In this document: positions 2,990-25,859 of the stretch, piece by piece
Numbering within the stretch: position 1 is the first letter of the stretch
Layout: the number at the start of each line of letters is the position of its first letter
From: an uncultured Acidobacteriota bacterium
GTDB taxonomy: Bacteria > Acidobacteriota > Terriglobia > Terriglobales > Acidobacteriaceae
Assembly: GCA_963787685.1 (NCBI GenBank)
Contig: CAWBED010000018.1
Location: forward strand, 33,556-97,555
Length of the DNA: 64,000 nt
Direction of reading: 5' to 3'
Made by a program: the position numbers and the translations under genes
Notes under the pieces: generated by a model
Told to the model about the DNA's origin: nothing
What the model saw: the letters and a program-made list of their open reading frames with translations, nothing else
The model's database searches: none

Positions 2990-3071
2990 AGTTCCTCATC
3001 GCCATCCTGAATCTCAAAGACGCGGCTTCGGTTATCATCAAGATTCATGAAGAATCATTCAGGAGAAATCT

Positions 3072-3533: not shown

Positions 3534-3538
3534 GCGCG

Positions 3539-4921
3539 TCAGAACAACACGGCTGACAGGTTCTGCTCGATGTATTTCTTGCTGTCAAATTTCTTGCCGG
3601 TGCTCGCGCCGGACATGTAACGAATCTGTCCAAAGATCGACCGCTCGAACCAGGGGCGGTCGAATTTTCCTACAATCGCCCAGGCGATTCCGGCATAGCC
3701 GTTCGGATCGCGGCCATCGAGTTCGTATTTGTCATTCAGATAAACGGCGATGCGGTGGGCTTCGGCCGGAGTGCGGCTCCACTCCAGAATCTTCTTCGCC
3801 CAATACATCCGCACATAGTTGTGCATCCATCCCGTGTTGACCATCTGCATTTGAGCAGCGTTCCATAGTGGATCGTGCGTTTCGGCGTGCTCCAGTTGGT
3901 TCTCGCTGTACAAAACGGGGCGTAGATCCTTCGCATGCTTGGCCAGCGTGCGGTGCGCCCAAGGCTCGGCGCACTCGAAGTTGTCGTAGTTCGGATTGAA
4001 GCGAACCAGGTTCACCGACAATTCCCGCCAAGTGATGATCTGATTCAGGAAGGCTTCTTTGTCGGCCTTGGGTGCGTCGGATTTTTCGACGGCCAGAGCG
4101 ACCGTGATCGGACTGATATGGCCGAAATGCAAATACGGTGAGAGCCGGCTGGTGTGGTCGACTTCGGGCTTGTTTCGCTGCGTGCCGTAGCCGCGCAGCT
4201 TGTGTTCGACAAAATCCCGTAGCAGGCGAAATGCTTCGAACGTTCCACCACGCCAGTTCGAGACCGGAGAAACAGAGCGATCGAGTTGCCAGCCTTCGGT
4301 GATGTCAGTCGCTGGATCGAGCGAAATGAGACCCGCGGGCTTTTTCCAGGCGAGATGCGCCTGGGGGTTCTCCGACGGGACCAGATACATTTTCAATTGG
4401 GCCTGCAACCGTGGACGAATCGTGTGCGCCGCATATTGCGCTTTTTCCAGCAGCTTTGACGGGACGATCACATCGGCGTCGACGGTCCACAGCGGCACTG
4501 TGAGTCTCTTGGCTGCCGTTTGCCGCCAGCCTTCGGGCTCGCGCATGGGATTTTCGTCGCCGACGACCAGTACAGCTTTCACTTCGTCGCAGAATTTCGC
4601 CAGGCTATGGTCAGGGTAGCGACGGAGAACAAATCCGACATTGCGTTTTTTCAACGCATCCGCGATATCGGCAATGCCTTCATTCAGAAACCGATAATGC
4701 CGCAGGTTGGCGTGGGGATAGAAAGGCACCGGGGCGAAGAACACAACCACCGGCTTGCCCAGAATATTAGCGGCTTCCACGGCGACATCGAGCGCAGGAT
4801 TATCGATGCCGCGCTGGGCGTGCTGCATCCAGTAGACGACGCACGCACCGTCGAGATCAGGAGGGCCAGCTCTCCGTACAGTGACTCTAGCGTCGGCCGA
4901 TAGCTTGATCAGAGAATCCAT
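3539..4921 (-). CDS. phr: Deoxyribodipyrimidine photolyase, class II type
   Basis: 460 aa. N-terminal VVYWMQHAQRGIDNPAL, SRLSPYLHFGHISP, and C-terminal MHNYVRMYWAKKILEW...DGRDPNGYAGIAWAIVG pattern typical of class II CPD photolyases. Confidence 0.85.
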   Translation of the reverse strand: MDSLIKLSADARVTVRRAGPPDLDGACVVYWMQHAQRGIDNPALDVAVEAANILGKPVVVFFAPVPFYPHANLRHYRFLNEGIADIADALKKRNVGFVLRRYPDHSLAKFCDEVKAVLVVGDENPMREPEGWRQTAAKRLTVPLWTVDADVIVPSKLLEKAQYAAHTIRPRLQAQLKMYLVPSENPQAHLAWKKPAGLISLDPATDITEGWQLDRSVSPVSNWRGGTFEAFRLLRDFVEHKLRGYGTQRNKPEVDHTSRLSPYLHFGHISPITVALAVEKSDAPKADKEAFLNQIITWRELSVNLVRFNPNYDNFECAEPWAHRTLAKHAKDLRPVLYSENQLEHAETHDPLWNAAQMQMVNTGWMHNYVRMYWAKKILEWSRTPAEAHRIAVYLNDKYELDGRDPNGYAGIAWAIVGKFDRPWFERSIFGQIRYMSGASTGKKFDSKKYIEQNLSAVLF

Positions 4922-6027: not shown

Positions 6028-6490
6028 TTACGGTTTCTCGATGATCCACTTCGTCATGAGATAGCGGGGATGATCTTCGAATCCCGAGCGCCGGTAGAGT
6101 TCGAGCGCAGGGTTGCCGTGATTGACCTCGAGGTGAACAACGGTGGCTCCGAGTTCTTTCGCCTGGGCTGCGAAGAATTCAAGAACTCGCGTGCCTATGC
6201 CTTGTCCGCGATACGTGCGGCGAACGAAGAATTCGTCGATCCAGGCGCCCCGGCCGCGGTATTCAAGGCTGTAGTCGAAGGCCATGACGATGTAGCCGAT
6301 GCGTTTGTCCGTCGGCAGCAATGAACCACACTCGGCCGAGCGACGGATCGCGCAGCAACCGTTCCGTGACGTTCGCAGCTTCGGCTTCGTTGAACGGCAC
6401 GGACCAGGGATCGTCCTTCTGCAGTTCCTTCATCATTGAGAGGAGCTCAGACAGGTTTCCAGGAAGCGCGGTTTGAAATGTGATCGGCAT
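6028..6490 (-). pseudogene. GNAT family N-acetyltransferase interrupted by an apparent 1-nt frameshift near 6305-6312
   Basis: The N-terminal half (MPITFQTALPGNLSELLSMMKEL...GRVWFIAADGQ) is in one frame. The acetyl-CoA core (KRIGYIVMAFDYSLEYRGRGAWIDEFFVRRTYRGQGIGTRVLEF...LEVNHGNPALELYRRSGF) continues in the frame one base later. Confidence 0.7.
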
Positions 6491-6515
6491 GCAGGTGGGG
6501 CGGGAGCGCGGAACT

Positions 6516-6947
6516 CTATCTGCGCCGGATAGCCGTCTTCCGCGCGCGGGCTCCATATGCGGCGCCGGGACCGGTTCCCTTCGGAGGCTTGCGCACTCCG
6601 TCGAGCAATTCCTTCAAAACGGCGGCATTGTTGTGGGTTTCGTTCTTCGAGGCGAAAAGGAGGGTGAGCCGTTTCTTCTTACGCGCCAGTTCGTAGAGCT
6701 GCCGCAACGCATCTTCGTATTCAGGCTGCGCGAGCTCCTTCAGATATTTGCTGCGGAAGGTCTGCCAATGATCCAAGTGCTCGTGATACCAGCGACGGAG
6801 TTCATTGGAAGGAGCCAGATCCCGGAGCCATTGATCGACAGCGGCGCGCTCCTTGGAGAGTCCGCGAGGCCATAGGCGGTCGACAAGAATTCTTGCCCCG
6901 TCCGTCCGTGCGGGCGGTTCATAGACGCGTTTGATGGCGACGGTCAT
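6516..6947 (-). CDS. DUF488 (YeaO-like) family protein
   Basis: MTVAIKRVYEPPARTDGARILVDRLWPRGLSKERAAVDQWLRDLAPSNELRRWY...LTLLFASKNETHNNA. ATG at 6947 chosen. Confidence 0.8.
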   Translation of the reverse strand: MTVAIKRVYEPPARTDGARILVDRLWPRGLSKERAAVDQWLRDLAPSNELRRWYHEHLDHWQTFRSKYLKELAQPEYEDALRQLYELARKKKRLTLLFASKNETHNNAAVLKELLDGVRKPPKGTGPGAAYGARARKTAIRRR

Positions 6948-7021
6948 GGGGGAGCGTGCGCTTTGCTCTATCATTGTAAAGCGGCGCGCAGAGCCGCGCA
7001 TCCTTGAGAGGCAAGGACTCA

Positions 7022-7432
7022 ATGCAATCGAAAGAAAGCAAGTGGCCCAGGCAGCTGAATACGATAAACGGTGCCGGGATTGTTCTAATTGCGCTGGTGG
7101 CGCTGGTCACACTGGCCGCAACGTCTGCGTGCGACGTCGAGCGTCGGAAGTCGGATGCGGAACTCGGGCTGAATCCGCAGCAATCAGCCGGCAGGAAAAT
7201 TTACGATGCCGAATGCGACCGCTGCCACGAACCGTATTCTTCACGCGGCAAGAAGGGTCCGAGTCTTAAAGGCGTGTTCCAGCACAAATATCTATCGCTC
7301 AGCGGACTGCCGGCCAACGACGAGCGTGTGACCGATATCGTCCGGCTCGGGCGCAACGAAATGCCGGGGTATAGCCAGAAGCTTAGCTCTCAGGATATTG
7401 AAGATTTGCTGGCTTACCTCCATACGTTATAA
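7022..7432 (+). CDS. Class I c-type cytochrome, probable lipoprotein
   Basis: Single CxxCH haem motif (ECDRCHE), a downstream Met region (GRNEMPGY), and an N-terminal hydrophobic segment ending LAATSAC (lipobox-like). Confidence 0.8.
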   Translation: MQSKESKWPRQLNTINGAGIVLIALVALVTLAATSACDVERRKSDAELGLNPQQSAGRKIYDAECDRCHEPYSSRGKKGPSLKGVFQHKYLSLSGLPANDERVTDIVRLGRNEMPGYSQKLSSQDIEDLLAYLHTL

Positions 7433-7482
7433 GGGCGGCGAATCGAAGGTCCGGCGCGGTTTTCATGGGATAATCCCCGAAG

Positions 7483-8961
7483 ATGAAGAGCGTGGCCAAA
7501 TCGGAGCTTTTTCGCGAGTTGCCTTCGGTCGACGAGTTGATCCGAACGCCGGCCGCGACGAACCTCGTCGACGCCCACGGAGCGGCCGCGGTCACGGATG
7601 CGGCCCGCTCGGTTTTGTCGCGGCTGCGCCAGGAAATTTCCTCGGGATTACTTGATGAACAGGCACTGCGACTTGCGTTGGGAGGAGTCACAGGTGCGAT
7701 CGAGAGTCAGCTTCGCCAGTCGCTCCGCCATTCCTTGCGCACGGTCATCAACGCGACTGGAGTCATTCTGCATACGAACCTTGGCCGGGCTCCGCTGGCG
7801 GAAGCGGCGCTGCAACACGTGCGCGAGACTGCCGGTCGTTACAGCAATCTTGAATTCAATGTCGAGACGGGAGAGCGGGGCAAGCGCGACGTTCACGTCG
7901 ACCGGCTATTCCAGAAACTACTGTCTGATGGCTTCCAGCAACATGTGGCGACGGCCGCCTCGGCCGTCCCGCAAGAACGCAGTTCTGGGGAACCTCAATA
8001 CGTCTCGACCATTGTGGTCAATAACAACGCTGCTGCGGTGCTGCTGGCACTCAACACGGTAGCCGAAGGTGGCGAGGTCATTGTCTCGCGGGGCGAACTG
8101 GTGGAGATCGGCGGATCGTTCCGCATTCCCGACGTGATGGCGAAATCGGGCGCGACGCTGCGGGAGGTCGGCACCACCAACCGTACGCGTGTCGGCGACT
8201 ACGAAAAGGCGATGAACGAACGAACGCGATTGCTGCTTCGCGTGCATCGTTCAAACTTTGAGATCACTGGATTCACCGAGCAGCCAACCACTGCGGAATT
8301 GGCGAAGCTGGCGCGGGACCGGAATGTGCCGCTGATGGAGGACCTGGGGAGCGGCGCGCTCGTCGATCTGCAGAATTTCGGCATCCAGGGCGAGTCCAGC
8401 GTTCTCGACAGCTTGCGGGCCGGCGTCGACGTTGTCACCTATAGCGGCGACAAGCTGCTGGGCGGACCGCAAGCCGGACTTCTGAGCGGTCGCCCCGATC
8501 TGATCGCGCGGATGCGCGCTAATTCGCTGTTCCGCGCGCTGAGAGTGGACAAGCTCACTTACGCGTCGCTGGAAGCCACGCTGCTTCTGTACGTCAAGCG
8601 CGACTACGACTCGATCCCAACTCTGAAGATGATGAGTTTGACGAAGGAAGAGATCGGCAGGCGCACGGAGACGCTGGCGGCACAAGTCCGGTCGGAGAAA
8701 TTCAACGTCGAAATCATCGACGGTGAATCTGTCATTGGCGGTGGAGCGGCACCGTCATCAGCATTGCCGACCCGGCTGCTAGCCTTGAGTCGGGACGGCG
8801 TCAGCGCGGATGAACTTGCTGCACGCCTCCGCGCTTCTGATCCGCCGATCATTGCCCGCGTGGAAGAAGGACGAGTCTTGCTGGACCTGCGGACCGTTTT
8901 CCCAGACGAAGAACCGCTGATCGCGGCCGCCCTCCATGTATCGATAGCCCGTATCGGATAG
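7483..8961 (+). CDS. selA: L-seryl-tRNA(Sec) selenium transferase
   Basis: 492 aa with INATGVILHTNLGRAPL, VVNNNAAAVLLAL, GTTNRTRVGDYE and YSGDKLLGGPQAG (PLP lysine region). Has an extra segment of about 25 aa (GFQQHVATAASAVPQERSSGEPQYVS) before the VVNNNAAA motif. Confidence 0.9.
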   Translation: MKSVAKSELFRELPSVDELIRTPAATNLVDAHGAAAVTDAARSVLSRLRQEISSGLLDEQALRLALGGVTGAIESQLRQSLRHSLRTVINATGVILHTNLGRAPLAEAALQHVRETAGRYSNLEFNVETGERGKRDVHVDRLFQKLLSDGFQQHVATAASAVPQERSSGEPQYVSTIVVNNNAAAVLLALNTVAEGGEVIVSRGELVEIGGSFRIPDVMAKSGATLREVGTTNRTRVGDYEKAMNERTRLLLRVHRSNFEITGFTEQPTTAELAKLARDRNVPLMEDLGSGALVDLQNFGIQGESSVLDSLRAGVDVVTYSGDKLLGGPQAGLLSGRPDLIARMRANSLFRALRVDKLTYASLEATLLLYVKRDYDSIPTLKMMSLTKEEIGRRTETLAAQVRSEKFNVEIIDGESVIGGGAAPSSALPTRLLALSRDGVSADELAARLRASDPPIIARVEEGRVLLDLRTVFPDEEPLIAAALHVSIARIG

Positions 8962-10074: not shown

Positions 10075-12468
10075 ATGGCTGCGATTGCTCCCACGCCTGT
10101 TGCTGCGCGCAGGGCGGAAATCCCAGAGTCCACGCTGTTGGCGGCGCTCGCGCTTACCAGCTTTTCGACATTGCTGCTGGAGCTTGCGCTGACGCGCCTG
10201 TTCTCGGTTGTTCTCTTCTATCACTTCGCATTTCTTGCTATTTCGATCGCTCTGCTGGGACTCGGGGCCGGCGGAGTGTTCGCCTACTTGCTCAAGAGCC
10301 AATTCGCGAATTCTGAGACTCGCGTGATCGCTAGCTGGCTGTGCATGGCGAATTCCGTAGTGATCTTCATTGTGCTGGAGACTGTGCTGCACGCGAGGGT
10401 GGCGCTTGACGTCTCGGCAATGAACTTCGTGCGGTTGACGGTAATTTATCTGGCCGCTGCCGTGCCGTTCTTCCTTACGGGACTTCTCTTTTCGATTGTG
10501 TTCGCGCGCGAAACCAGTCGCATTCCACGGCTCTATGGAGCCGATTTGTGCGGTGGAGCGCTGGCCTGCCTTGCGGTCGTCCCGTTGCTGAATTGGCTGG
10601 GCGGGCCGAATACGATCCTAGCCGCGGGAATTTCTTTAGCTCTTGCGGCCATCCTTTGGGCAGAGACCAGCACCATCCGCAAATTCGCAGGCTTCCTGGC
10701 GCTGGTTCTCGCTGGGCTGATCGCGGCGAACCATTCGGGACGCCTGATTGACATTGTTTATGCGAAGGGGATGTTCCGCAATCCGGAGTGGGTTGAGTTC
10801 GCGCGCTGGAATGCGTTGTCGCGGGTGGAAGTGGATCGACAAGGACAGGCGAAGGCGATTGTCATCGACGCCGATGCATCCACTTACATCATGAACGCCG
10901 ATCTTTCGCATTGGCAGGGCACGGTGTGGGAGCACAATCTGATGGCAGCGCCGCCAGCGCTGGCTAATGTTTTACGCCCACACGGAGATTTCGCGATCAT
11001 TGGGCCGGGTGGTGGCGTGGACGTGTTGCGAGCCGTGGCCAACGGCAGTCCGAGCGTCACCGGAATCGAAATCAACCCCATCATCGCCACCACGATCATG
11101 CGTGGTCGGTACGCGGATTACGCGCAGCATCTTTACGATCGTCCCGATGTTCACATTCACGTCACGGACGGCCGTTCGTTCCTGCGTTCGACTCCGCAGC
11201 ATTTCGATGTTGTACAGATGACGCTCGTGGACACGTGGGCTTCGACCGCGGCCGGCGCCTTCGCACTCAGCGAAAATAATTTGTATACGGTTGACGCCTT
11301 CCGCGAATATTTCGATCACCTCAAGCCGGAAGGCATGATCGCGATAACGCGCTGGGAGTTCCGCGAGCCGCGTGAAGCGTTGCGCGTTGTGGCCGTTGCG
11401 ATGGACGCACTGCATCGCCTCGGTGTCGCGAATCCTGCCCGCAACTTCATTGTGGCGTCACAGGGATCGCTCGATGAAGACGGTATCCCGGTGATCGTGC
11501 TGGCGAAGAAGACTGCGTTTACGGCCGAGGAAGAGGCGGCGGTGAACAAGCATTTCGATCGCTATTCGGAACTTGAGCCGATTTATCTGCCGTCACAGTC
11601 CGGGCACGATCCGTTCTCCGAACTGATTGCCAGCAATGATCCGTACGCCTTTGCCAGGGGCTACGCCTACAACGTCGCGCCGGTGAACGATAACGCGCCA
11701 TTCTTCTTCTTCACGCTCAAGGCCAGCCAGATTCTTGGAGAAAAAGGACTGCGCCAGGGGATCGACTGGAAAGTAAACCTTGGTGTACTGGTTCTGCTGC
11801 TGGTGCTCGTCATCTCGATCGTTGCGGTGCTCGTATTTCTGGTTCTGCCGCTGGCCTTGCGGAGCAACCAGTCTCGCAAATCCCCGCTTTGTCTGCTCTA
11901 TTTCGTTGCCGTGGGACTCGGCTACATCATGGTCGAGATCGCGTTTATCCAGCGCTTTGTGCTCTTTCTCGGACATCCGACATACGCCCTGACCGTGGTT
12001 ATTTTTCTACTGATGTTATCGAGTGGCGCCGGCAGCCTGCTTTCCCGGCTCTGGTTGCCACGGCCGGAGATGGGCTGGATCCCGCTGGCACTCGTTATTC
12101 TCACGCTGGCGGCGGATGTGTTCTTCCTTCCGAACCGGCTCGCCGCGCTCGTGGGTATGAGTTTCGACTATCGTCTGCTGGTTAGCGGAGTCCTGTTGAT
12201 CCCACTGGGATTTGTCATGGGAATGCCTTTCCCCACGGGCCTTCGTGCTCTGGCGGCTTCTCCCGCACCCGAGTTTCCGTCTGGTCAAGGAGCGTCGGAC
12301 AATGCCGTGGAGTGGGCCTGGGCGATGAATGCCGCGGCAAGTGTGATGGGATCGGTGCTGGCGATGGTGATTGCCATCCAGTTCGGATTGACCATTACCC
12401 TGGCGTGCGGAGCCGCCGCATACCTGTTAGCTCTGCTGACGATGCCTATGTTGCGTCCTCGTACGTAG
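10075..12468 (+). CDS. Polytopic membrane protein with a central spermidine-synthase-like (class I methyltransferase fold) domain
   Basis: 797 aa. About 7 N-terminal and about 6 C-terminal hydrophobic helices flank a soluble block with IIGPGGGVDVLRAV...DVVQMTLVD, the aminopropyltransferase-like nucleotide-binding pattern. Confidence 0.7.
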   Translation: MAAIAPTPVAARRAEIPESTLLAALALTSFSTLLLELALTRLFSVVLFYHFAFLAISIALLGLGAGGVFAYLLKSQFANSETRVIASWLCMANSVVIFIVLETVLHARVALDVSAMNFVRLTVIYLAAAVPFFLTGLLFSIVFARETSRIPRLYGADLCGGALACLAVVPLLNWLGGPNTILAAGISLALAAILWAETSTIRKFAGFLALVLAGLIAANHSGRLIDIVYAKGMFRNPEWVEFARWNALSRVEVDRQGQAKAIVIDADASTYIMNADLSHWQGTVWEHNLMAAPPALANVLRPHGDFAIIGPGGGVDVLRAVANGSPSVTGIEINPIIATTIMRGRYADYAQHLYDRPDVHIHVTDGRSFLRSTPQHFDVVQMTLVDTWASTAAGAFALSENNLYTVDAFREYFDHLKPEGMIAITRWEFREPREALRVVAVAMDALHRLGVANPARNFIVASQGSLDEDGIPVIVLAKKTAFTAEEEAAVNKHFDRYSELEPIYLPSQSGHDPFSELIASNDPYAFARGYAYNVAPVNDNAPFFFFTLKASQILGEKGLRQGIDWKVNLGVLVLLLVLVISIVAVLVFLVLPLALRSNQSRKSPLCLLYFVAVGLGYIMVEIAFIQRFVLFLGHPTYALTVVIFLLMLSSGAGSLLSRLWLPRPEMGWIPLALVILTLAADVFFLPNRLAALVGMSFDYRLLVSGVLLIPLGFVMGMPFPTGLRALAASPAPEFPSGQGASDNAVEWAWAMNAAASVMGSVLAMVIAIQFGLTITLACGAAAYLLALLTMPMLRPRT

Positions 12469-12586: not shown

Positions 12587-13666
12587 TTGCCTAGCCAGAA
12601 GCAGCTCAAGTGGTCGCAACTGCGTGTTGGGATCACGGTGATCGTCGCCAGTCTGACGCTCGGATTTCTGCTGTTCCTCATGTCGGGCACGGCGGGGCTC
12701 TTCACTCCGCGTATCACGCTGAGATCCTATTTCGACAATGCCGAAGGGCTGCGAATCGGCGCTCCCGTGCGCCTGAGTGGGGTCGATATCGGCAATGTGA
12801 CTCATATCGGCATCGTCAACATGGCAGATAAGCGGCTGACGCCCGTCGAAGTCCAAATGAAAGTGAGCACGAAGTATGGTTATGCCCTGCGACGAGACTC
12901 GGTGACTTCCCTCGAGACGGCTGGAGTGCTCGGCGAGACCTATCTCGATATCGACAGCTCGCAGGCCGTGGCGGGAGATGTGCACGACGGCGACATTCTG
13001 CCGACACAGGTTCATCCCGACTTCAACCAGGTGGTCCGCGCCAGCCAAAGCACGCTGCAAAACATGGACGCGTTGTTGAAACGCGCCGACCGCATTCTGG
13101 CATTCGCCGAAAGCGGCAAGGGATCTCTGGGAAAACTGATCTACGACCCGACACTCTATAACCGCTTCTCGGCGACAGTTGCCGATTTCCAGAAGATCGT
13201 CTCAGAAGTGGGAAGCGGCCAGGGAAGTCTCGGCGCTCTCATCAGCCGCAACGACGCCTATGACAAGTTCCTTTCCACGCTCGACAAAATGAACAGCGTG
13301 ATCGACGACATGCAGCAAGGCAAGGGCACGGCCGGAAAATTCCTGAAAGACCCGTCGCTCTATAACAACGCCAACGATACGATCGCCAACCTGAAGAAGG
13401 TCACCGACGACATCAACGCGGGCAAGGGAACGCTGGGCAAGCTGGCGAAGGACGAGGAACTGGCGAAGAAGTTGGATACGACGATCACCAAGCTGTCAGA
13501 ACTCACCACAGAACTCGAAGCCGGCCAAGGCTCGGCGGGCAAGCTCTTCAAAGACGAAACCCTCTACAACAATGCCAGCGATATGTTGGTAGAGACGAAG
13601 GCGCTGGTCAAGGGGATCCGCGAGAATCCGAAGAAGTATCTGAGCATTAAACTGCACATATTCTGA
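12587..13666 (+). CDS. MlaD/MCE-domain protein with five C-terminal tandem repeats
   Basis: TTG start after GAGGAAA. N-terminal TM helix, MCE core (YFDNAEGLRIGAPVRLSGVDIGNV), then five repeats of about 34 aa each starting G(K/Q)G(S/T)xGK. Confidence 0.75.
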   Translation: MPSQKQLKWSQLRVGITVIVASLTLGFLLFLMSGTAGLFTPRITLRSYFDNAEGLRIGAPVRLSGVDIGNVTHIGIVNMADKRLTPVEVQMKVSTKYGYALRRDSVTSLETAGVLGETYLDIDSSQAVAGDVHDGDILPTQVHPDFNQVVRASQSTLQNMDALLKRADRILAFAESGKGSLGKLIYDPTLYNRFSATVADFQKIVSEVGSGQGSLGALISRNDAYDKFLSTLDKMNSVIDDMQQGKGTAGKFLKDPSLYNNANDTIANLKKVTDDINAGKGTLGKLAKDEELAKKLDTTITKLSELTTELEAGQGSAGKLFKDETLYNNASDMLVETKALVKGIRENPKKYLSIKLHIF

Positions 13667-13789
13667 TCACTTTTCGCGCCCTTTGCGGGTGCGATGCTTG
13701 CCGTACCTAAGGTGGATCGTCCTGCTCTTTCCTGAATTCAGGCGCCTGTCCGGATGTTATATTGTGCGAATTCCGGAGGCGCGGCGTTC

Positions 13790-15025
13790 ATGGCCCCCAT
13801 TCTTCTCTGGCTGATTCTGGTTCTCTGCCTGCTGATCTCTGTGGTGAAGTACGTCATGGGGATCATCATGCGGTTTTCTTTCCCTAGCGTAAGGGCCAGG
13901 AAGGATTACAGCTACGAGCCAACCGTCAGCGTGCTGATGCCCTGTTACAACGAGGGCAAGACGGTGTATGAAACGATCGAGAGCATCAGCAAGAGCAATT
14001 ATCCGAACTCCAAGTTTGAAGTGATCGCGCAAGACGACTGTTCCGCCGACGACAGCTACGAGTGGATGATCAAAGCTCAGCGGGACTTCACCAACATTCG
14101 GATCCGGACCGGGCGGAATGCAGTCAACAGCGGCAAGGCGCGCTCGGTTTGCAATGCCCTTCAACATTCCACGGCAGAGGTCATCATTTCGATTGATTCG
14201 GATTGCATCTTCCATCCCGACGCCATCCGCGAATTGACCGCCTGTTTCGCCGAACCGCGCATGGGTTCGGTAGGTGGCCGGGTTGGAGTCAGGAATCCGA
14301 ACGAGAGCGTCATCACTGCCATCCAGACGATAATTTATTACTCGGCGTTCCAGCTGTATAAGATTCCGGAGAACTGGACCCGCAGTGTGTGCTGCATTAG
14401 CGGTTGTCTCTTCGCGATCCGGCGCGAGTTGTTGCTCGAAATCGAGCCGGCAATCCGCGCCCGCAACTGGTTCGGCATTCCGGTAAATCAAGGCGAGGAC
14501 AGGTTTCTGACTCACCAGACCCTACTGCGCGGGTACGGAACGTACATCAACAACGACGCGCTTTGCTGGACTACGGTGCCCAACACGCTCTCTGTTCTCT
14601 TCAAGCAGCAACTGCGCTGGCGGCGGAGCATTGTGCGGGACTTCTTCTACACGCTCAAGACTTTGCCGCAGCATGTCTGGAAGCTGCACCCGAACACGGT
14701 GCTCACTCTGGTTTTGACCCCGGTCGGAGCTCTGGTTGGATTTCTAGTCTTGATGACCATGCTCACTCAGGATCCACTGGCTTGGACTGGACCCGTCCCG
14801 CTTTTGACGGCGCTTGGAATTGGGGCAGTTCTGAGTTGGGTGATCAAGCGATACAGCGCGAAAGAGGCGATCACCCATCCTCTGGCCTTTGCAGCATACG
14901 TAGCCTGGTCGTTCGTCAGCAGCTTGTTTCTGACGCCCCTCGCCCTGTGCACTATGGATTCCGCGGACTGGGGCACTCGAACTATCGAACAACAAGAGGT
15001 GCCTCTTGGCAACGCCATCCGCTGA
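13790..15025 (+). CDS. Processive family-2 glycosyltransferase, NodC / hyaluronan-synthase / chitin-synthase-like
   Basis: VSVLMPCYNEG, DDCSADDS, SIDSDCIF (DXD), GEDRFLT and QQLRWRRS (QxxRW) motifs. TM helices at the N-terminus and in the C-terminal third. The ATG at 13790 follows GGAGG; an alternative ATG lies at 13754. Confidence 0.85.
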   Translation: MAPILLWLILVLCLLISVVKYVMGIIMRFSFPSVRARKDYSYEPTVSVLMPCYNEGKTVYETIESISKSNYPNSKFEVIAQDDCSADDSYEWMIKAQRDFTNIRIRTGRNAVNSGKARSVCNALQHSTAEVIISIDSDCIFHPDAIRELTACFAEPRMGSVGGRVGVRNPNESVITAIQTIIYYSAFQLYKIPENWTRSVCCISGCLFAIRRELLLEIEPAIRARNWFGIPVNQGEDRFLTHQTLLRGYGTYINNDALCWTTVPNTLSVLFKQQLRWRRSIVRDFFYTLKTLPQHVWKLHPNTVLTLVLTPVGALVGFLVLMTMLTQDPLAWTGPVPLLTALGIGAVLSWVIKRYSAKEAITHPLAFAAYVAWSFVSSLFLTPLALCTMDSADWGTRTIEQQEVPLGNAIR

Positions 15026-15050
15026 CACGCTCCCGCCGGAACCAAAAACA

Positions 15051-16127
15051 ATGCCGCCTGACACTCAGACGAGGAAGGCGCCGCCCCCGCAGACCCTGCA
15101 ATCGTTGCACTACAAACTCATCCTTACGCTGTATCGAGTCTTTGCCATCGCGGTGCTGTATCTCGTGTTGATCGGCATTCTTGCCTACGCCTGGGTCATG
15201 GGATTCTACGCGGTGAACAGTTCCTGGGCCGCGCCGGTGATTCTCTCGGCTGCTGACGAGAAGAGCCTCGACTTCCGCGAAAAGCTGGTGACCAGCCAGC
15301 AGACCATCGAGGATCTAAAGGTCGACACCAACAAATTGAACAGTGGCGTGGCCGAGATGAAAAAACATCGCGCCGCTCTGCTCGCTCTCGAACCGCAACT
15401 GCAGACCGCGATCGCGCGCGAGCAGACCCACAACCTCACCGCCGGACCCGAGCTCGCGACCCTCGACCGTCAGAAGCTCGCCGACAACCAGAAAACGCAA
15501 ACGGTGCTGGCCCAGCTGAACCAGGTAGAGTCGAACATCAACAAGGATCTCGCCAGCGGATTGATCACGCAGGGTGATGCGGCTACGCAGCTCGCCGCCC
15601 TGAACCAGGCAAAAGGAGCCTACACCGATAGCAAAATTGCCGAAGTCTTGCTTACCGACAGCGTTCTCGATAAGACCACCACGGGCACCAGTTCGCTCAA
15701 CGTGCTGGTAAAGCAGGCGGAGTTGCGCTCCGAGGTCGCGCAGCTGGACGTTGCCATCAACGTGGCGGAGAAACAGCTGCAGGAAGAATCCCGCCAGATC
15801 GATCGCTTACGAGAGGCGATCGGCACCGCCAAGCAAAATCCGTATTACCTGAATGCCGCGGGCGGCCAGACACTTTACTTTGCATTCGTGCCCTACGACA
15901 ACCAGGCGCATGCGGTGGCCGGAAGTTCCGTCTACGACTGCTATCTGAACATGATTGCCTGCCGCAAGGTCGGTACGGTGAAGCAGATATTTCCGGGCGA
16001 AGAGCAAGCCATCCATCCCATCTTCAAGACGCAGATTCGCGGCTTCCTGATCCAGATGAATCTGGATCACGCCGATTCCGCGAAATCCAAGACCGTGTTC
16101 CTGGGCAGCAAGCCAGTGCTTTTTTGA
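15051..16127 (+). CDS. Inner-membrane-anchored coiled-coil protein (periplasmic adaptor / MFP-like architecture)
   Basis: One TM helix (ILTLYRVFAIAVLYLVLIGILAYAWV), about 200 aa of Q/L/A/E-rich helical sequence, and a beta-rich C-terminal domain. Same strand, 25 nt after the GT2 stop. The ORF track starts it at TTG 15006. Confidence 0.6.
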   Translation: MPPDTQTRKAPPPQTLQSLHYKLILTLYRVFAIAVLYLVLIGILAYAWVMGFYAVNSSWAAPVILSAADEKSLDFREKLVTSQQTIEDLKVDTNKLNSGVAEMKKHRAALLALEPQLQTAIAREQTHNLTAGPELATLDRQKLADNQKTQTVLAQLNQVESNINKDLASGLITQGDAATQLAALNQAKGAYTDSKIAEVLLTDSVLDKTTTGTSSLNVLVKQAELRSEVAQLDVAINVAEKQLQEESRQIDRLREAIGTAKQNPYYLNAAGGQTLYFAFVPYDNQAHAVAGSSVYDCYLNMIACRKVGTVKQIFPGEEQAIHPIFKTQIRGFLIQMNLDHADSAKSKTVFLGSKPVLF

Positions 16128-16156
16128 CCCATTTAGCCGCGCCGAAGGAGAAAAGA

Positions 16157-17218
16157 ATGTTTCCAAATCACTGGAAGTTGGTGATAGTGTCCGCCCTGTT
16201 CCTGGCAAGTACAGCGTGGGCAGGGGACCTGACTGATCAGTTGGCTTATTGCTCTTATGTGATGGAGCAGGCCGAGGCTCAGCGCGACCTGTTGCGAACT
16301 CCGATTGCCGCCGGCGGCTTCACGCAGCCCGAAACCGGTTTGCCGCTGCAATTGGTTGGCGGCGCATCGCTCGGTCTCTCCGACTTCCGGAAAGCCGGTC
16401 TGACCATGGCTGTGGCGCGCAAGAACTGCGAGCTCTACAAAGCTACGACTGCGGCTCAGCAGGATGTTCAATATGCGCTGTCCAGCTTGGAGAGAGAAGC
16501 GTTGAATCACCGGCTCACGCTGATCGAACAGGCCGCGAAATCGCTGGACGAACTGATGGCCACGACCTCGAAAATGGTGGAGGCCCAAACTGCGACGCGC
16601 CTCATGCTTTTTTCGCTGCAGACAACGAAGATCAAGCTGGAGGCCGACCGTGCCGATACCCAGTCGAAAATCGCCGCGATCTATGTCCCACCCCTCAGCG
16701 ATAAACCTCTGAAGGAGCTTGTCGCACAGAAACAGAACGGCGAAGCCAGCCAGCAAAAGGCGCTTGATAGGCTCAACCGCCAGAACAATTGGGACGTAGC
16801 TCTTTCCGTGGGCGTGCACCAGCAAGTGAATCCAGTCGCTTACGGCGCGCAGCCTTACGGAGCCGTCTCTGTCAACTACAACCTTGCCAGTCGCGCCATC
16901 GACAAGCACCTCGATCGCGCAGCGGATTCTTATAGTGAGTGGAAAAAATTGCAGGAGGGCGATGTGGTCCGCAACATGGAGGTCCTGCGCCAGCAATTGC
17001 TCGATAGTGCCACAGTTCAGGAAGCCAAGCTCAAATCACTTCAGGCTGAGAGCGGGCAAATCGATAAGAACCTGCAGTCGGTTACCAATCCTGACACCTC
17101 CGCAGCGCTCGACTTCCGCAATCAATTGAGCGCTGCCCAGCTTCTCCTGCAAGTCGAGACTGGAGATGCCAGCTTTCGGGCCGGCCGCCTGCGGGAATAC
17201 CTCGAAAAGAATTACTGA
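16157..17218 (+). CDS. Secreted helical protein, tentatively TolC/outer-membrane-factor-like
   Basis: AAGGAG at 16145-16150 then ATG at 16157. Signal peptide MFPNHWKLVIVSALFLASTAWA. Long helical stretches surround a short beta segment (NWDVALSVGVHQQV...YGAVSVNYNL). The similarity call rests on architecture only. Confidence 0.5.
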   Translation: MFPNHWKLVIVSALFLASTAWAGDLTDQLAYCSYVMEQAEAQRDLLRTPIAAGGFTQPETGLPLQLVGGASLGLSDFRKAGLTMAVARKNCELYKATTAAQQDVQYALSSLEREALNHRLTLIEQAAKSLDELMATTSKMVEAQTATRLMLFSLQTTKIKLEADRADTQSKIAAIYVPPLSDKPLKELVAQKQNGEASQQKALDRLNRQNNWDVALSVGVHQQVNPVAYGAQPYGAVSVNYNLASRAIDKHLDRAADSYSEWKKLQEGDVVRNMEVLRQQLLDSATVQEAKLKSLQAESGQIDKNLQSVTNPDTSAALDFRNQLSAAQLLLQVETGDASFRAGRLREYLEKNY

Positions 17219-19464: not shown

Positions 19465-20037
19465 ATGGAACGATGGCTCAATGAGCATTGGGTCCCGATC
19501 GCGCTGTGCGCGGCGATCCTGCTCACGCTATTGATCCCGATTCTGGCGCTGCGATGGGATCTCGCATGGCTGCTCATCTACGCGATGCTGCCTGTCTACA
19601 TGTTCCATCAGGTTGAGGAGCACACCGGCGACCGCTTTCGCGAGTTCGTGAATCGAAAAGTTTTTGGCGGCGTTCAAGCGCTGACGCCCCTTGCCGTGCT
19701 ATGGATCAATCTGCCGGGAGTCTGGGGTGTTGGTTTGCTCTCGCTATATGCGGCGAGTTTTGTGGCTCCGGGATGGGGCCTGAGCATCGTGTATCTCACG
19801 CTGGTCAATGCGGTGGTGCACATCGCGGCGGCGTTAGGGTTCCGTGAATATAATCCGGGACTTTGGACAGCCATTTGCCTTTTTGTGCCGGTGGGCGCAC
19901 TGGCGCTCTTGAAGGTGAGCGCCCTCCCGGGAGTTGGACGCATTCATCACGCTGTGGGATTGGTGATCGGGCTTGGGATTCACGCCGCCATCATCGTGTA
20001 TACGCGCCATCGCGCAGCAAGAATCGCTTCAATTTAG
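19465..20037 (+). CDS. HXXEE-domain membrane protein
   Basis: MERWLNEHW..., 5-6 TM helices, and the HQVEEH motif. The upstream part of ORF 19213..20037 overlaps lipA and was discarded. Confidence 0.65.
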   Translation: MERWLNEHWVPIALCAAILLTLLIPILALRWDLAWLLIYAMLPVYMFHQVEEHTGDRFREFVNRKVFGGVQALTPLAVLWINLPGVWGVGLLSLYAASFVAPGWGLSIVYLTLVNAVVHIAAALGFREYNPGLWTAICLFVPVGALALLKVSALPGVGRIHHAVGLVIGLGIHAAIIVYTRHRAARIASI

Positions 20038-21671
20038 TAAGTGCCCACCCTCACGCGCACGACTTGCGGCACAGAGGCAAAATTCAATCCCCAGTCGGTT
20101 TGATCGCCATTCCATATGCGAATCGGTTTGAAAGTTCCGTTTTCGTAGCTGCCTTCTTCGACCCGGACGTATTCGCGTTGCTTTCGCGAAGACGAGTCTG
20201 CGACATGGAAATCGACACGGCAGAAAAACCCTGCGACGAGGAACTCATTGTCCGCGAGTTGTGCGACAAATGCGCGCCCGGTTGGTTCCGGGTTGCCCGG
20301 CGGATCACTGGCCCCAAACTGTCCAAGCCCGTAGGACACCGTGACTTTCCATTGCCCGAAATCCAGCGACCCGGTGGGTTTGCCCTTTTCCTCTACAACC
20401 GCTTTCAGCTTGCCGTCAAAATTCAGGCGCGCGATTTCTCGATCCATGGGAGCGACAAGCTTGTAGTTGAGAGCGAACGGTTCCAGCGATTTTTCGGTGA
20501 TCTGGGTTGCGCCGATCGGAGCGTTGTCATATTTCGTGTAATCGAGGCCAAAGGGTGAGAATCCGATGGCTTGGTGCCCCAGAGCAGCGAAAAAATATCG
20601 TGAATATGCGGGCGATTGGCCAGTCTCCGGAACAAACATCGCATTGTCCGGGCGATGATACAGATCAAGAATCTTCAGATATTCCGCGCTACCTTCCATA
20701 TAGATATCCGGTGCGACGAGATCAATTGACGGAGCCGCGGCTTTCCAGATGGGAATGACATTGTCGGTGGCCCCACCCGTCTCGTAGTTGTGTTCATGCG
20801 TTGTCTGAAATGGATTCCGCAGCGCCGCGTTCACATAGAGCGGTAACGGATAGATGGCTTTTCCCGCAGCGGCGATCTGCTCAATGTATCGAGCCACGAA
20901 CCACGCGTGGAAGAATTCTTCCGCGTCCTCGCCGAAGACTTGCTGCCAATTCTCAGAAGCAGAGGCCGTTTTGTCCAAGGACTTAAGCAGTTCGAGCGGC
21001 ACCGGCGCCTCAAACGCGTTTTGAGCCGCAGGGGAGTAATCGCGAACACTGCCCCAAGTGCCGGGCTCGTTCTCGACCTGAACCATCAGCACGGTACGTT
21101 CTTCATCGGATGCCTTGAGATGGCGCATCAGCGCGCTGAACGCTTTGACATCGGCCTGGAGCGTTGCGCTTGCAAAGGGAGACGGCGAGTCCACGGGCAG
21201 CCCCTTCGCGCCAATCATCTTCGGATAGCGCTCGGGCTGACTCTTCATCCATAGAGGAATGTAGTGAGAGCTGCCGTTCTTCCACGTACCGAACCAGAGC
21301 AGAACGAGATGGACGTGATGCTCGCGAGCCTGCGCGAGCAGAGTGTCGAGCAGGGAGTAGTCAAATCGTCCTTCTTCCGGCTCGAACTGCTCCCAATAGA
21401 TCGGCAACTCCACAGTATTCGCGTGGAGATACTCGATGGCAGGCCAGACCTTCGGCAACATCGCGGGCCATGCGCTGGAATTGTTGGCCTGGGCGCCCAG
21501 CATCAGGAACGGAGCGCCGTCCACGAGGAGAGCGTAACGGCCGTCTTTCTGCTCAATGCGAGGAATGGGGTGAGCGTTCGATTGTGCGAACGTCGCCTGC
21601 GAAAAAGAGCAGGCCAGCAGAACTAAACAAACGAATGCGTATGAAGCTCCCTGGGGCGGGTTCGTATTCAT
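20034..21671 (-). CDS. Secreted glycoside hydrolase, GH35/GH42-like beta-galactosidase fold (DUF5597-type)
   Basis: Signal peptide. TIM-barrel motifs ANTVELPIYWEQFEPEEGRFDYS, LLWFGTWKNG and VQVENEPG (acid/base Glu region). Confidence 0.8.
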   Translation of the reverse strand: MNTNPPQGASYAFVCLVLLACSFSQATFAQSNAHPIPRIEQKDGRYALLVDGAPFLMLGAQANNSSAWPAMLPKVWPAIEYLHANTVELPIYWEQFEPEEGRFDYSLLDTLLAQAREHHVHLVLLWFGTWKNGSSHYIPLWMKSQPERYPKMIGAKGLPVDSPSPFASATLQADVKAFSALMRHLKASDEERTVLMVQVENEPGTWGSVRDYSPAAQNAFEAPVPLELLKSLDKTASASENWQQVFGEDAEEFFHAWFVARYIEQIAAAGKAIYPLPLYVNAALRNPFQTTHEHNYETGGATDNVIPIWKAAAPSIDLVAPDIYMEGSAEYLKILDLYHRPDNAMFVPETGQSPAYSRYFFAALGHQAIGFSPFGLDYTKYDNAPIGATQITEKSLEPFALNYKLVAPMDREIARLNFDGKLKAVVEEKGKPTGSLDFGQWKVTVSYGLGQFGASDPPGNPEPTGRAFVAQLADNEFLVAGFFCRVDFHVADSSSRKQREYVRVEEGSYENGTFKPIRIWNGDQTDWGLNFASVPQVVRVRVGTY

Positions 21672-24287: not shown

Positions 24288-24368
24288 CTGCAATCAACCT
24301 TTGTTTGTCGCGATCCAGTTACTTTCGGAACGTCAGTGGTTACCTTCGCGAGGGTAGAATCCGTTGGA

Positions 24369-25859
24369 ATGCCGAAAATGGCCGTTTTGTACGAGGCTGG
24401 CCAGGCTGTGCTCTCGACCTTTGATTCGGACGAGGTCCTGCAGCGGATTCTCGCCATCGCCCGTGATCATTTTCACTTGCCGAATGTGGCCATCTTGTTG
24501 ATCGACAAGGAGGCGCAGCAGCTGTTTGTCCGCTCGCAGATCGGCTGGGATACAGGCAAAGACAACATTCGACTCGGCATTCACGACGGGATTAGCGGCG
24601 CCGCAGTCTCTACTAAGAAACCCGTTCATGCTCCCGACACGAGTAAGGATTCGCGCTACATTTGCGCTGCGAAATCTACCTGCTCCGAGTTGGCGATCCC
24701 GCTGCTGGTGAGGGATGAGGTCATAGGAGTCCTCGATTGTCAGAGCGACCGACTGAACCGCTTCGACGACGAGACGATCGAGCTGTTGACGCTCTTCTCG
24801 ACCCAGGCTGCGCTGGCATTGCAGAATGCCCGCCTGTATTCACTGGAGCGCCAGCGCGCGCGACAACTCCAAGCCATCAATGCAATCGCGCAGCAGAGCA
24901 CGGCGGTGATGGAGCTTGAAGATCTGCTCGCTCGCGCGTGTTCCGTGATCCAGCAGGCATTCCAGGTTTCGCACGTTTCTCTCTGTTTGCGGGAAGACGA
25001 CCACCTGGTTATGCGCGCGCACCATGGCGCACTGACACCCAACTTTCCGGAAGGCGGGCGATTTCCAGCCAGCCAAAGGCCGTGGTCGGAGGTGATCGCG
25101 ACCGGTGGCACAATAATCGAGAGAGACTTGAGTCGAGAATCGGACTCGACCCGTCTCTTCAAAGAGTGCGAATCGCAGATGAGCATTCCCTTGATTTCCT
25201 TCGGGCAAACTCACGGCGTGCTCACGCTGCATAGCTCTCAACGGAATACCTTCCGCGAAAACGAACTCCAGCCGCTCGAATCTGTGGCCGACATTTGCGC
25301 GAACTCGATTCAGAATGCGCACTACGTCCAGCGGGTGAAGCAGCTGGCGTACCTCGATGGGCTCACCGGGATCTTCAACCGGAGGTTCTTCGAGCTGCGG
25401 ATCATGGAGGAAATCGAGCGCGCCCGGCGTTATGGAACCGGCATGGCCGTCATCATGGCCGACATCGATCAGTTCAAGCAGCTCAATGACGAGTTCGGAC
25501 ACCTGCTCGGCGACGAAGTTCTGCGCCAGGTTTCTTCCCTCTTTCACCAGCAACTGCGCAAGATCGATGTGGTTTGCCGCTACGGCGGAGAGGAATTCGC
25601 GATTCTGCTGACCCAGACCAACTGCCAGCAAGCGACGGCGATTGCCGAGAAATTACGGAAGATGGTCGCGGAGTGGCAGTTTCCGGGAGTGCCGCGGACG
25701 GTCACCATCAGCGCAGGCGTGGCCGCGTTCCCGACGCACGGCAAAACGCGGGATGAAATGATTCGCGCCGCCGACAGCGGACTCTATGCTGCAAAGCAGG
25801 CTGGACGCAACCGCGTCTGCCTGCCCAGCCTTACAAACGGGGCGTCGAACGGTCGTTAA
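24369..25859 (+). CDS. Diguanylate cyclase with two N-terminal GAF domains
   Basis: Two GAF-like blocks (…VLDCQSD…, …GVLTLHS…) followed by GGDEF-domain motifs DIDQFKQLNDEFGH and RYGGEEFAILL. The ORF track begins at GTG 24336. Confidence 0.9.
   Translation: MPKMAVLYEAGQAVLSTFDSDEVLQRILAIARDHFHLPNVAILLIDKEAQQLFVRSQIGWDTGKDNIRLGIHDGISGAAVSTKKPVHAPDTSKDSRYICAAKSTCSELAIPLLVRDEVIGVLDCQSDRLNRFDDETIELLTLFSTQAALALQNARLYSLERQRARQLQAINAIAQQSTAVMELEDLLARACSVIQQAFQVSHVSLCLREDDHLVMRAHHGALTPNFPEGGRFPASQRPWSEVIATGGTIIERDLSRESDSTRLFKECESQMSIPLISFGQTHGVLTLHSSQRNTFRENELQPLESVADICANSIQNAHYVQRVKQLAYLDGLTGIFNRRFFELRIMEEIERARRYGTGMAVIMADIDQFKQLNDEFGHLLGDEVLRQVSSLFHQQLRKIDVVCRYGGEEFAILLTQTNCQQATAIAEKLRKMVAEWQFPGVPRTVTISAGVAAFPTHGKTRDEMIRAADSGLYAAKQAGRNRVCLPSLTNGASNGR

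Follow-up and report, generated by a model that had tools for sequence, protein, structure and literature searches.

What do three tightly packed genes in the genome of a soil acidobacterium make, and how would their product leave the cell? The genes lie in a 64,000-nt stretch (here the window) of an uncultured Acidobacteriota bacterium of the family Acidobacteriaceae (GenBank assembly GCA_963787685.1, contig CAWBED010000018.1, positions 33,556–97,555 of the forward strand). An earlier note, made from the sequence alone, proposed that they form a tripartite module for polysaccharide synthesis and export, and the computational tests described here support that interpretation. We consider it probable (roughly 0.6) that the trio encodes a single machine spanning the cell envelope, which makes a polysaccharide and exports it, an operon-encoded, synthase-dependent three-part system whose function we infer from gene order, motifs and predicted folds. 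The three open reading frames (ORFs), in window coordinates, are:

13790–15025, + strand: ORF1, predicted inner-membrane glycosyltransferase family 2 (GT2) synthase of the hyaluronan-synthase/NodC/chitin-synthase branch, 411 aa (alternative ATG at 13754)
15006–16127, + strand: ORF2, predicted membrane-anchored, periplasmic adaptor-like protein, 373 aa from TTG 15006 or 358 aa from ATG 15051
16157–17218, + strand: ORF3, secreted, compact TolC/outer-membrane factor (OMF)-like channel protein by predicted fold, 353 aa

Gene layout and linkage of the trio

The ORF listing places all three on the + strand of the window, at 13754/13790–15025, 15006/15051–16127 and 16124/16157–17218, where the two starts given are alternatives. 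An AAGGAG stands 8 nt 5′ of the ORF3 start, ATG 16157, as had been noticed before. That the three ORFs are packed on one strand also stands, but the 25-nt gap described between ORF1 and ORF2 probably does not. Homologues of ORF2 are about 370 aa long, and the N-terminus of their consensus, ‘ATP..T...E.K..PP’, agrees with ORF2 read from TTG 15006; we therefore take this codon as the probable start, which makes ORF2 and the end of ORF1 share 20 nt. Throughout the region base composition is uniform, and an Rfam scan of the window found no riboswitch, including no cyclic di-GMP (c-di-GMP) riboswitch 5′ of the trio.

Gene order was surveyed by a scan of one genome per species, which yielded 114 ORF3 relatives, and 80 of these loci were fetched. 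The scan used very conserved peptide patterns and thus covers close relatives only; more distant contexts were fetched individually. The order GT2–ORF2–ORF3 was kept in 79 of the 80 Terriglobia loci, the remaining one being cut by a contig end, with median identities of 87% for ORF1, 81% for ORF2 and 73% for ORF3. Because identical order recurs in 79 of 80 loci from different species, the arrangement of the trio is not due to chance. When the flanking ORFs of the 80 loci were clustered, no family occurred in more than 13 loci, those that recurred were housekeeping genes, and no conserved fourth gene emerged. A constant trio within differing flanks therefore marks a self-contained module. The MlaD-like gene immediately upstream, which the earlier note had left as a possible member, was considered as a fourth component and rejected, since it is present in only 8 of the 80 loci.

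Three of the loci (L006, L034 and L059) carry a trio 72–78% identical to the Terriglobia version in metagenome-assembled genomes labelled Candidatus Binatus, Betaproteobacteria and Methylomirabilota; these labels probably reflect mis-binning, or else recent transfer.

Linkage extended to distant lineages, where the trio was counted in eight of nine contigs, with gene order permuted:

Paraburkholderia sp. PGU19 megaplasmid (L081): EAL protein, ORF2-like, ORF3-like, TviB-like dehydrogenase, glycoside hydrolase family 16 (GH16)-like glycanase, GT2
Hydromonas duriensis (L085): dehydrogenase, GT2, ORF2-like, ORF3-like
Agitococcus (L084): ORF2-like, ORF3-like, GT2
Metagenome contigs L082, L086, L087 and L088: GT2, ORF2-like, ORF3-like
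Metagenome contig L089: 270-aa ORF cut by the contig end, ORF2-like, ORF3-like
Ralstonia (L083): degenerate, with ORF2-like intact, ORF3-like truncated and no GT2 within the 15-kb locus

The eight include L089, and the ORF2-like genes of L086–L089 were assigned by position, size (344–359 aa) and absence of a Pfam match. The Paraburkholderia proteins are 47% (GT2), 31% (ORF2; E = 1e-58) and 25% (ORF3) identical to those of the window. Synteny in related genomes is thus borne out; the module is not confined to Acidobacteriota, being found also in Paraburkholderia, Hydromonas and Agitococcus. In the Ralstonia sp. locus, the ORF3-like gene at 8078–8635 (plus an uncalled stretch to 10751) encodes about 185 aa, and a dehydrogenase and a two-component system are present.

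ORF1 carries the signature of the chain-forming branch of GT2

ORF1 matched the Pfam models Glyco_tranf_2_3 (7e-30), Glycos_transf_2 (1e-25) and Chitin_synth_2 (1e-16). Its best NCBIfam model was NodC, aligned end to end at 150.5 bits, followed by PgaC at 128.7 bits, while the CelA models reached only 40 and 22 bits. Neither of the two leading equivalogs can be assigned: NodC proper (TIGR04242) has a cut-off of 550 bits and PgaC/IcaA proper (TIGR03937) one of 422 bits. Among structures in the PDB, the best sequence matches were the hyaluronan synthases 8smm and 7sp7 (E about 1e-17, at low identity). Within the 411 aa, Pfam and NCBIfam revealed no PilZ or other additional domain.

All four motifs recorded in the earlier note, DDCSADD, SIDSDC, GEDRFLT and QQLRWRRS, were located in ORF1, the first at aa 82–88 (residues counted from ATG 13790), and a further one, DWGTR, was added to its list. 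Those with coordinates are:

14189–14206, + strand: SIDSDC (aa 134–139), DxD metal/UDP-binding motif, aligning with IDSD of the Chlorella-virus hyaluronan synthase
14492–14512, + strand: GEDRFLT (aa 235–241), catalytic-base motif, aligning with GDDRHLT and GDDRRLT of hyaluronan synthases
14606–14629, + strand: QQLRWRRS (aa 273–280), QxxRW acceptor-binding motif of processive GT2 enzymes, aligning with QQTRWTKS and QQTRWSKS
14966–14980, + strand: DWGTR (aa 393–397), 3′ of the membrane helices, aligning with AWGTR, where the match to the Chlorella-virus hyaluronan synthase ends

Hydropathy revealed a hydrophobic segment near the N-terminus and three to four more towards the C-terminus, in agreement with the earlier description of both termini, and the alignment with the Chlorella-virus enzyme spans the membrane region (aa 300–398). 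Judged by sequence, this motif set is the signature of the chain-forming hyaluronan-synthase/NodC/chitin-synthase branch; ORF1 itself is neither NodC nor PgaC. ORF1 aligns with hyaluronan synthases over both its catalytic and its membrane parts, which upholds the earlier assignment of GEDRxLT together with QxxRW to processive GT2 enzymes, and we regard ORF1 as very probably a processive synthase of this branch.

Weak matches to Pfam Glyco_transf_21 (2.5e-7) and NCBIfam HpnI (46 bits) raise another reading, in which the GT2 glycosylates a lipid in the manner of glycosyltransferase family 21 or HpnI, and ORF2 and ORF3 carry the glycolipid outward, as in the DevBCA–TolC exporter of heterocyst glycolipids. 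These matches are far weaker than those to polymer synthases; QxxRW, WGTR and a membrane region like that of hyaluronan synthases characterise enzymes that form chains, and the carbohydrate esterase family 4 (CE4), GH16 and UDP-N-acetylglucosamine (UDP-GlcNAc) dehydrogenase neighbours found in relatives (see below) fit a polysaccharide. We consider export of a glycolipid very improbable.

ORF3 is a compact TolC-like protein by predicted fold

ORF3 begins with a cleavable signal peptide, as reported earlier; it ends AWA|GD, and a comparable one opens every full-length member of the family. Hydropathy showed no other hydrophobic segment in ORF3. The elements read from the sequence or from an AlphaFold2 model are:

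16157–16222, + strand: Sec signal peptide (MFPNHWKLVIVSALFLASTAWA|GD) with no lipobox, read from the sequence
16304–16369, + strand: first beta hairpin (aa 50–71), where ‘LQLVGGASLGLS’ alternates hydrophobic with small or polar residues; low predicted local distance difference test (pLDDT)
16376–16582, + strand: first long helix (aa 74–142), 69 residues, about 100 Å if ideal; pLDDT 79–96 in the model
16682–16711, + strand: linker YVPPLSDKPL (aa 176–185), 10 residues, at the canonical place of the equatorial domain
16790–16882, + strand: second beta hairpin (aa 212–242), WDVALSVGVHQQ...YGAVSVNYN, with clean dyad alternation
16883–17080, + strand: second long helix (aa 243–308), 66 residues, from the model

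The model reached pLDDT 72 and a predicted template modelling score (pTM) of 0.60, with helices at 80–96. Its elements fall into two series, H25–46, E50–57, E65–71, H74–142 and H148–174 followed by H185–210, E214–223, E232–242, H243–308 and H315–352 (H, helix; E, strand), that is, the two-repeat topology of OMFs, in which each repeat consists of a short helix, a beta hairpin, a long helix and a returning helix. In length, the first long helix equals the long helices of TolC. When the halves of ORF3 were compared by profile, the two beta hairpins alone aligned, weakly (E = 0.007). What is absent from the model is the equatorial domain: only the linker lies between the repeats, and the C-terminus follows directly after the last helix. 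Mature ORF3 therewith measures about 331 aa, against about 350–490 residues for the OMF chains hit by Foldseek; typical OMFs are well above 400 aa.

Foldseek searches of the PDB with this model returned OMFs at all of ranks 1–43 (E = 2e-6 to 1e-2), with probability 1.0 at ranks 1–39 and 0.98–0.99 at ranks 40–42; OprN, SilC, OprJ, TolC, CusC, OprM, MtrE, VceC and CmeC were among them. Unrelated helical proteins appeared only at E > 1e-2. The query-normalised template modelling score (TM-score) to OMFs was at most 0.49. In sequence, hydrophobic/polar alternation is clean in three of the four strands, G219 is invariant and W212 and G69 are at least 90% conserved among relatives 22–47% identical, and P178 in the linker is invariant across the family. 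The signal peptide and amphipathic strands are compatible with an outer-membrane barrel trimer. C32 (16247–16258) and C91 (16421–16438), the only Cys pair of ORF3 that is invariant in very distant relatives, fit a periplasmic disulfide, which would link the first of the short helices with the first of the long ones.

The ORF3 family is separate from known ones. A search of 1.84 billion cluster representatives with its profile returned only 320 clusters (50% identity) at E ≤ 1e-3, and we therefore regard ORF3 as a small family of its own, distinct from canonical TolC. Its homologues number more than 1,300. The best 120 homologues of ORF2 and of ORF3 are each at least 73% identical and come from Terriglobia (Sulfotelmatobacter, Acidoferrum and relatives), where they are annotated as ‘hypothetical protein’ or under a clearly erroneous machine-assigned name such as HflD. 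The earlier description of ORF3 as TolC-like thus holds for the fold but not for membership of the TolC family by sequence, and the equatorial domain is missing. On the strength of the modelled fold, which gives good support, ORF3 is quite probably an OMF-like channel.

ORF2 is a probable adaptor-like membrane protein

In ORF2, hydropathy showed one long hydrophobic segment only (aa 21–57), with basic residues ahead of it, confirming the single N-terminal transmembrane (TM) anchor proposed earlier, which is predicted to be N-in. Three features matter here:

15111–15227, + strand: transmembrane anchor (aa 21–59), from hydropathy; unusually conserved
15546–15584, + strand: conserved loop DLASGLITQGDAA (aa 166–178), between model helices H134–168 and H174–202; candidate hairpin tip
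15876–16064, + strand: C-terminal beta domain (aa 276–338), strands from the AlphaFold2 model; contains Cys297 and Cys304

The AlphaFold2 model (pLDDT 66) comprises the TM helix, a short strand at aa 62–63, four long helices (aa 70–129, 134–168, 174–202 and 214–261) and the C-terminal beta domain; this single domain of about 65 residues follows the helices, and the strand at aa 62–63 is the only one before them. Conservation peaks in the membrane helix, the junction W59–S66, the inter-helix loop DLAxGLIT (aa 166–173) and the beta domain. In a diverse alignment Y28, L36, Y46, W59 and P62 are invariant in relatives of just 25–34% overall identity; in the loop T173 is invariant, conservation reaches 90% or more at L167, A169, L171, I172 and A177, and aa 166–178 might serve as a docking tip. 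C297 and C304 (15939–15962), likewise the only Cys pair of ORF2 that is invariant across very distant relatives, fit a periplasmic disulfide.

All four Foldseek matches of ORF2 in the PDB at E < 1e-3 were adaptors, EmrA at 6e-5 and three MacA entries at 3–5e-4; Spr0693, ZneB and LipC stood farther down. Homologues of ORF2 number more than 1,300 at E ≤ 1e-3, and relatives occur also in Trinickia, Caballeronia, Cupriavidus and Janthinobacterium. The predicted fold lends moderate support to ORF2 being an adaptor, which we think rather probable. The adaptor assignment made earlier has moderate backing from the top structural matches of ORF2 and none from HlyD sequence models. No unrelated family lays claim to either protein: no sequence family matches them, and their predicted folds match adaptors (ORF2) and OMFs (ORF3).

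A proposed synthesis and export machine

We propose that ORF1, in the inner membrane, would polymerise a UDP-activated sugar of the N-acetylhexosamine (HexNAc) type on the cytoplasmic face and, from its alignment with class I hyaluronan synthases, may pass the chain through a membrane channel of its own as they do. ORF2 would be anchored beside ORF1 by its highly conserved TM helix, and its long helical hairpin and small beta domain would project into the periplasm like those of a periplasmic adaptor (membrane fusion protein, MFP). ORF3, exported by Sec, would presumably assemble as a trimer with a 12-stranded barrel and a helical tunnel of about 100 Å, providing the exit across the outer membrane, TolC-like minus the equatorial domain. 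In this scheme we infer the contacts between the proteins, their stoichiometry, tip-to-tip docking, the identity of the polymer, and whether the chain is sealed off or exposed to the periplasm. The polymer might be chitin-like, hyaluronan-like or another HexNAc-containing chain.

Clues to the product

Four representatives of the ORF3 family (567–612 aa) carry a C-terminal CE4 polysaccharide deacetylase: those at L082 3159–4931 and L089 1887–3656 and the proteins P0261 and P0280. Almost no linker separates the parts; CE4 follows immediately on the final helix of the OMF-like portion, at the canonical position of the equatorial domain. On both CE4-fusion contigs examined (L082 and L089) the fusion follows an ORF2-like gene, and in L082 it also accompanies an intact GT2.

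Beside the module, three proteobacterial loci encode a TviB-like UDP-GlcNAc C6-dehydrogenase (L081 10121–11422, L085 3389–4681 and L083 5467–6837; 393–421 bits), and these proteins score far lower against UDP-glucose dehydrogenases. A fourth locus, L087, has a fragmented UDP-sugar dehydrogenase at 2325–3607. The Terriglobia trio has no dehydrogenase neighbour. In Paraburkholderia (L081), a GH16-like glycanase and an EAL protein (6394–7713, directly upstream) also lie beside the module.

As read from sequence, the CE4 fusion and the TviB-like dehydrogenase suggest HexNAc chemistry, with uronic-acid derivatives in Proteobacteria, and on balance we favour a HexNAc-based product. A link of the module to c-di-GMP is possible, given a GGDEF protein downstream in the window and the EAL protein in Paraburkholderia. 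The former is a GAF-GAF-GGDEF diguanylate cyclase at 24336–25859 (+ strand), about 7 kb 3′ of the trio.

Evidence against the proposal and alternative readings

Several observations count against a three-part conduit of this kind, beginning with the failure to recognise ORF2 and ORF3 by sequence. Neither protein alone gave a Pfam or NCBIfam match at E ≤ 0.1 or a PDB sequence match, and ORF3 gave no OEP match at E ≤ 1. Among relatives searched with Pfam at E ≤ 1, only two of 64 ORF3 relatives matched OEP (PF02321), marginally (E about 0.01), and none of 50 ORF2 relatives matched HlyD, Biotin_lipoyl_2 or HlyD_D23. Profiles built from diverse homologues of each found nothing among PDB sequences. 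With hhalign, the ORF3 family reached a probability below 1% against E. coli TolC and a thin TolC alignment, and the ORF2 family 1.7% against a thin AcrA alignment, the TolC and AcrA sequences having been entered by hand; matching pairs scored slightly above cross pairs, with all probabilities at most 2% and not significant. Jackhmmer searches seeded with TolC or AcrA over 997 ORFs of the fetched loci retrieved one OEP and two MFPs and none of the 80 ORF3/ORF2 copies. The models themselves rest on shallow alignments and reach moderate confidence only, with the ORF3 strands at pLDDT 36–60. TM-scores of ORF2 to adaptors were just 0.13–0.15, generic coiled coils came close behind, and ORF2 has space for one small beta domain where canonical adaptors have a lipoyl and beta-barrel pair.

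Both the absence of sequence homology by any profile method and the moderate confidence of the models would be expected if the fold matches were artefacts of long helices and ORF2 and ORF3 had another role, for example as a periplasmic coiled-coil scaffold. Yet 43 OMFs precede any generic helical protein in the ORF3 search and the four strands are correctly placed; a barrel also agrees with the signal peptide and with strands that are amphipathic and contain conserved Gly and Trp residues; and for ORF2, generic coiled coils rank below the adaptors. We therefore judge an artefact quite improbable.

The CE4 fusions bear on a different question. Placed by the model, a fused CE4 would sit in the periplasm, outside the helical barrel, and is therefore a poor fit with a fully sealed duct; the enzyme may have an exposed chain as its substrate, or possibly peptidoglycan, and is no proof of a GlcNAc polymer. 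A polysaccharide might then be made with no continuous conduit, ORF2 acting as a co-factor or co-polymerase like BcsB, PgaD or Alg44 and ORF3 as an outer-membrane or periplasmic partner that receives an exposed chain. Such an arrangement would account for the accessibility of the chain in the periplasm that a CE4 domain at the ORF3 C-terminus suggests, for the lack of the canonical lipoyl and barrel pair in ORF2, and for a TM helix that is the best conserved part of ORF2 across distant relatives, as in an intramembrane partner of a synthase. However, the hairpins of ORF2 could reach the tip of an OMF, and its top structural matches are adaptors that do so; the fold of ORF3 is that of channels working only with adaptors; and the ORF2 loop at aa 166–178 and the ORF3 helix turn at T147 are conserved where the tips would meet. 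We hold this second arrangement to be rather unlikely.

Neither is the length of the product given by the synthase. NodC is as good a relative of ORF1 as the hyaluronan synthases and equal in size, yet it makes only pentamers, and the ORF1 sequence therefore does not reveal how long the polymer is; and the window trio has no c-di-GMP receptor domain. If the GT2 acts like NodC, its product might be a short chito-oligosaccharide or a different small oligomer of HexNAc that serves as signal or osmolyte and is exported by ORF2 and ORF3. NodC is the best NCBIfam model along the whole length of ORF1 (150 bits), the 411-aa size and membrane topology are NodC-like, and relatives have CE4 (NodB-like) domains. 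Against this, 150 bits compares with an equivalog cut-off of 550; the likeness of ORF1 to polymer-forming hyaluronan synthases runs through the membrane region; and in all 79 loci the trio lacks an accompanying inner-membrane transporter, whereas NodC products need the NodIJ ABC exporter. Export of short oligomers therefore seems to us unlikely, and a synthase that feeds a growing polysaccharide into an adaptor and channel remains the reading that we prefer.

Comparison with known systems

Synthase-dependent export across the outer membrane is known for systems with tetratricopeptide repeat (TPR) porins, namely BcsC for cellulose, PgaA for poly-N-acetylglucosamine, AlgK/E for alginate, and Pel. 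A tripartite XcsA–XcsB–TolC route for cellulose secretion was reportedly proposed by Maeda et al. in 2018. The two precedents mentioned in the earlier note, for cyanobacterial cellulose and rhizobial mixed-linkage glucan, proved to be XcsAB–TolC and BgsBA–TolC. In the former, a GT2, an HlyD-like adaptor and TolC are proposed for cellulose in Thermosynechococcus and other cyanobacteria; TolC lies outside the operon, and according to a 2025 review the model is without experimental validation (PMC12430437). The trio shares with it a processive inner-membrane GT2 paired with an adjacent adaptor or adaptor-like gene and a proposed TolC-type exit. XcsA, however, is of BcsA type with PilZ, while ORF1 is of hyaluronan-synthase/NodC type without it; XcsB is recognisable as HlyD by sequence and ORF2 is not; and the operon of the trio includes a dedicated OMF-like gene.

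For the mixed-linkage beta-glucan of Sinorhizobium meliloti, made by BgsB–BgsA, tolC is genetically required for the polymer (PMC13438883). A GT2 synthase is co-encoded with an MFP or MFP-like protein in both Bgs and the trio. BgsA is a glucan synthase with a c-di-GMP-binding C-terminus, which the trio lacks, and the Bgs OMF is the housekeeping TolC, encoded elsewhere and shared with efflux pumps, in contrast to the small separate ORF3 family.

Class I hyaluronan synthases (streptococcal HasA with hasB and hasC, and the Chlorella-virus and vertebrate enzymes, PDB 7sp7 and 8smm) are the closest solved relatives of ORF1, with DxD, GDDRxLT/GEDRxLT, QQxRWxxS and WGTR in common. In these enzymes the synthase doubles as a membrane channel, a property that ORF1 may share. 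To our knowledge, the bacterial class I hyaluronan synthases described so far are Gram-positive and have no outer-membrane partners. Streptococcal hasA adjoins hasB, and in Proteobacteria the module likewise adjoins a nucleotide-sugar dehydrogenase, TviB-like instead of a UDP-glucose dehydrogenase.

Likeness to NodC/NodB lies in NodC being the best curated model for ORF1 and in the CE4 domain that some relatives add to the module. The pentamers made by NodC enter the cytoplasm and leave the cell via NodIJ, with no adaptor and duct; no nod genes were found near the trio. PgaABCD and IcaADBC share with the module a GT2 synthase, a periplasmic CE4 (in relatives of the trio) and a dedicated outer-membrane exporter (predicted for the trio). 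Pga export runs via the PgaA TPR-porin and PgaC requires PgaD, whereas the trio has no TPR-porin and ORF1 has GEDR and QQLRW instead of PgaC-type motifs. Alg8–Alg44 also pairs a GT2 synthase with a single-pass, MFP-like inner-membrane protein; Alg44 has a cytoplasmic PilZ domain, and the chain passes to AlgK/AlgE, a TPR protein and a beta-barrel, not to an OMF. The trio thus differs from these precedents in its synthase branch, in having no c-di-GMP receptor domain, in its dedicated, co-encoded, compact OMF-like protein and in its sequence-orphan partners.

A literature search, with most subscription journals outside its coverage, found no description of the trio, in line with the earlier remark that such a module was not known to be described for this GT2 branch. 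We put at about even odds that it is the first operon-encoded, self-sufficient tripartite synthase–adaptor–duct polysaccharide machine, combining an enzyme of hyaluronan-synthase/NodC type with two database-orphan families, one of them a TolC-like channel reduced to a minimum, in which the equatorial domain was lost or never existed. Such a machine would then represent a separate class of synthase-dependent exopolysaccharide secretion, present in many soil Terriglobia and several proteobacterial lineages, with uncharacterised HexNAc or HexNAc–uronic-acid polymers as its products.

With synthase, adaptor-like and channel-like genes always encoded together, the module offers a cleaner test case for TolC-type polysaccharide export, and its culturable carriers Paraburkholderia, Ralstonia and Hydromonas make genetics feasible. 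Two widespread groups of hypothetical proteins would gain a function from it (ORF2 with more than 1,300 homologues, ORF3 with 320 clusters), and it points to a minimal design for TolC-like channels. For Terriglobia, a HexNAc-based matrix polymer yet to be characterised is also suggested. These bacteria abound in peat and acidic soils, and the extracellular polysaccharides there influence soil aggregation and the turnover of carbon.

Neighbouring genes in the window

The MlaD/MCE-domain protein upstream of the trio (12587–13666, + strand; Pfam MlaD 8e-17) has five repeats with an exact 34-residue period in its C-terminal half, each starting G(K/Q)G(S/T)(L/A)G(K/A)(L/F), at aa 177, 211, 245, 279 and 313; at the DNA level no tandem repeat is detectable in the gene. 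The ORF ahead of it (10075–12468, + strand) specifies a polytopic membrane protein of 797 aa whose central domain weakly resembles spermidine/spermine synthases (Pfam 3e-3; NCBIfam polyamine aminopropyltransferase matches of 18–22 bits). The 797-aa protein and the MlaD-like gene co-occur in the same eight of the 80 loci, so that the latter travels with this protein and not with the trio. On the other side, the product of 20034–21671 (− strand) is secreted and 545 aa long; its N-terminal part is like a GH42 beta-galactosidase, its C-terminal domain is DUF5597, and it has no synteny with the trio.

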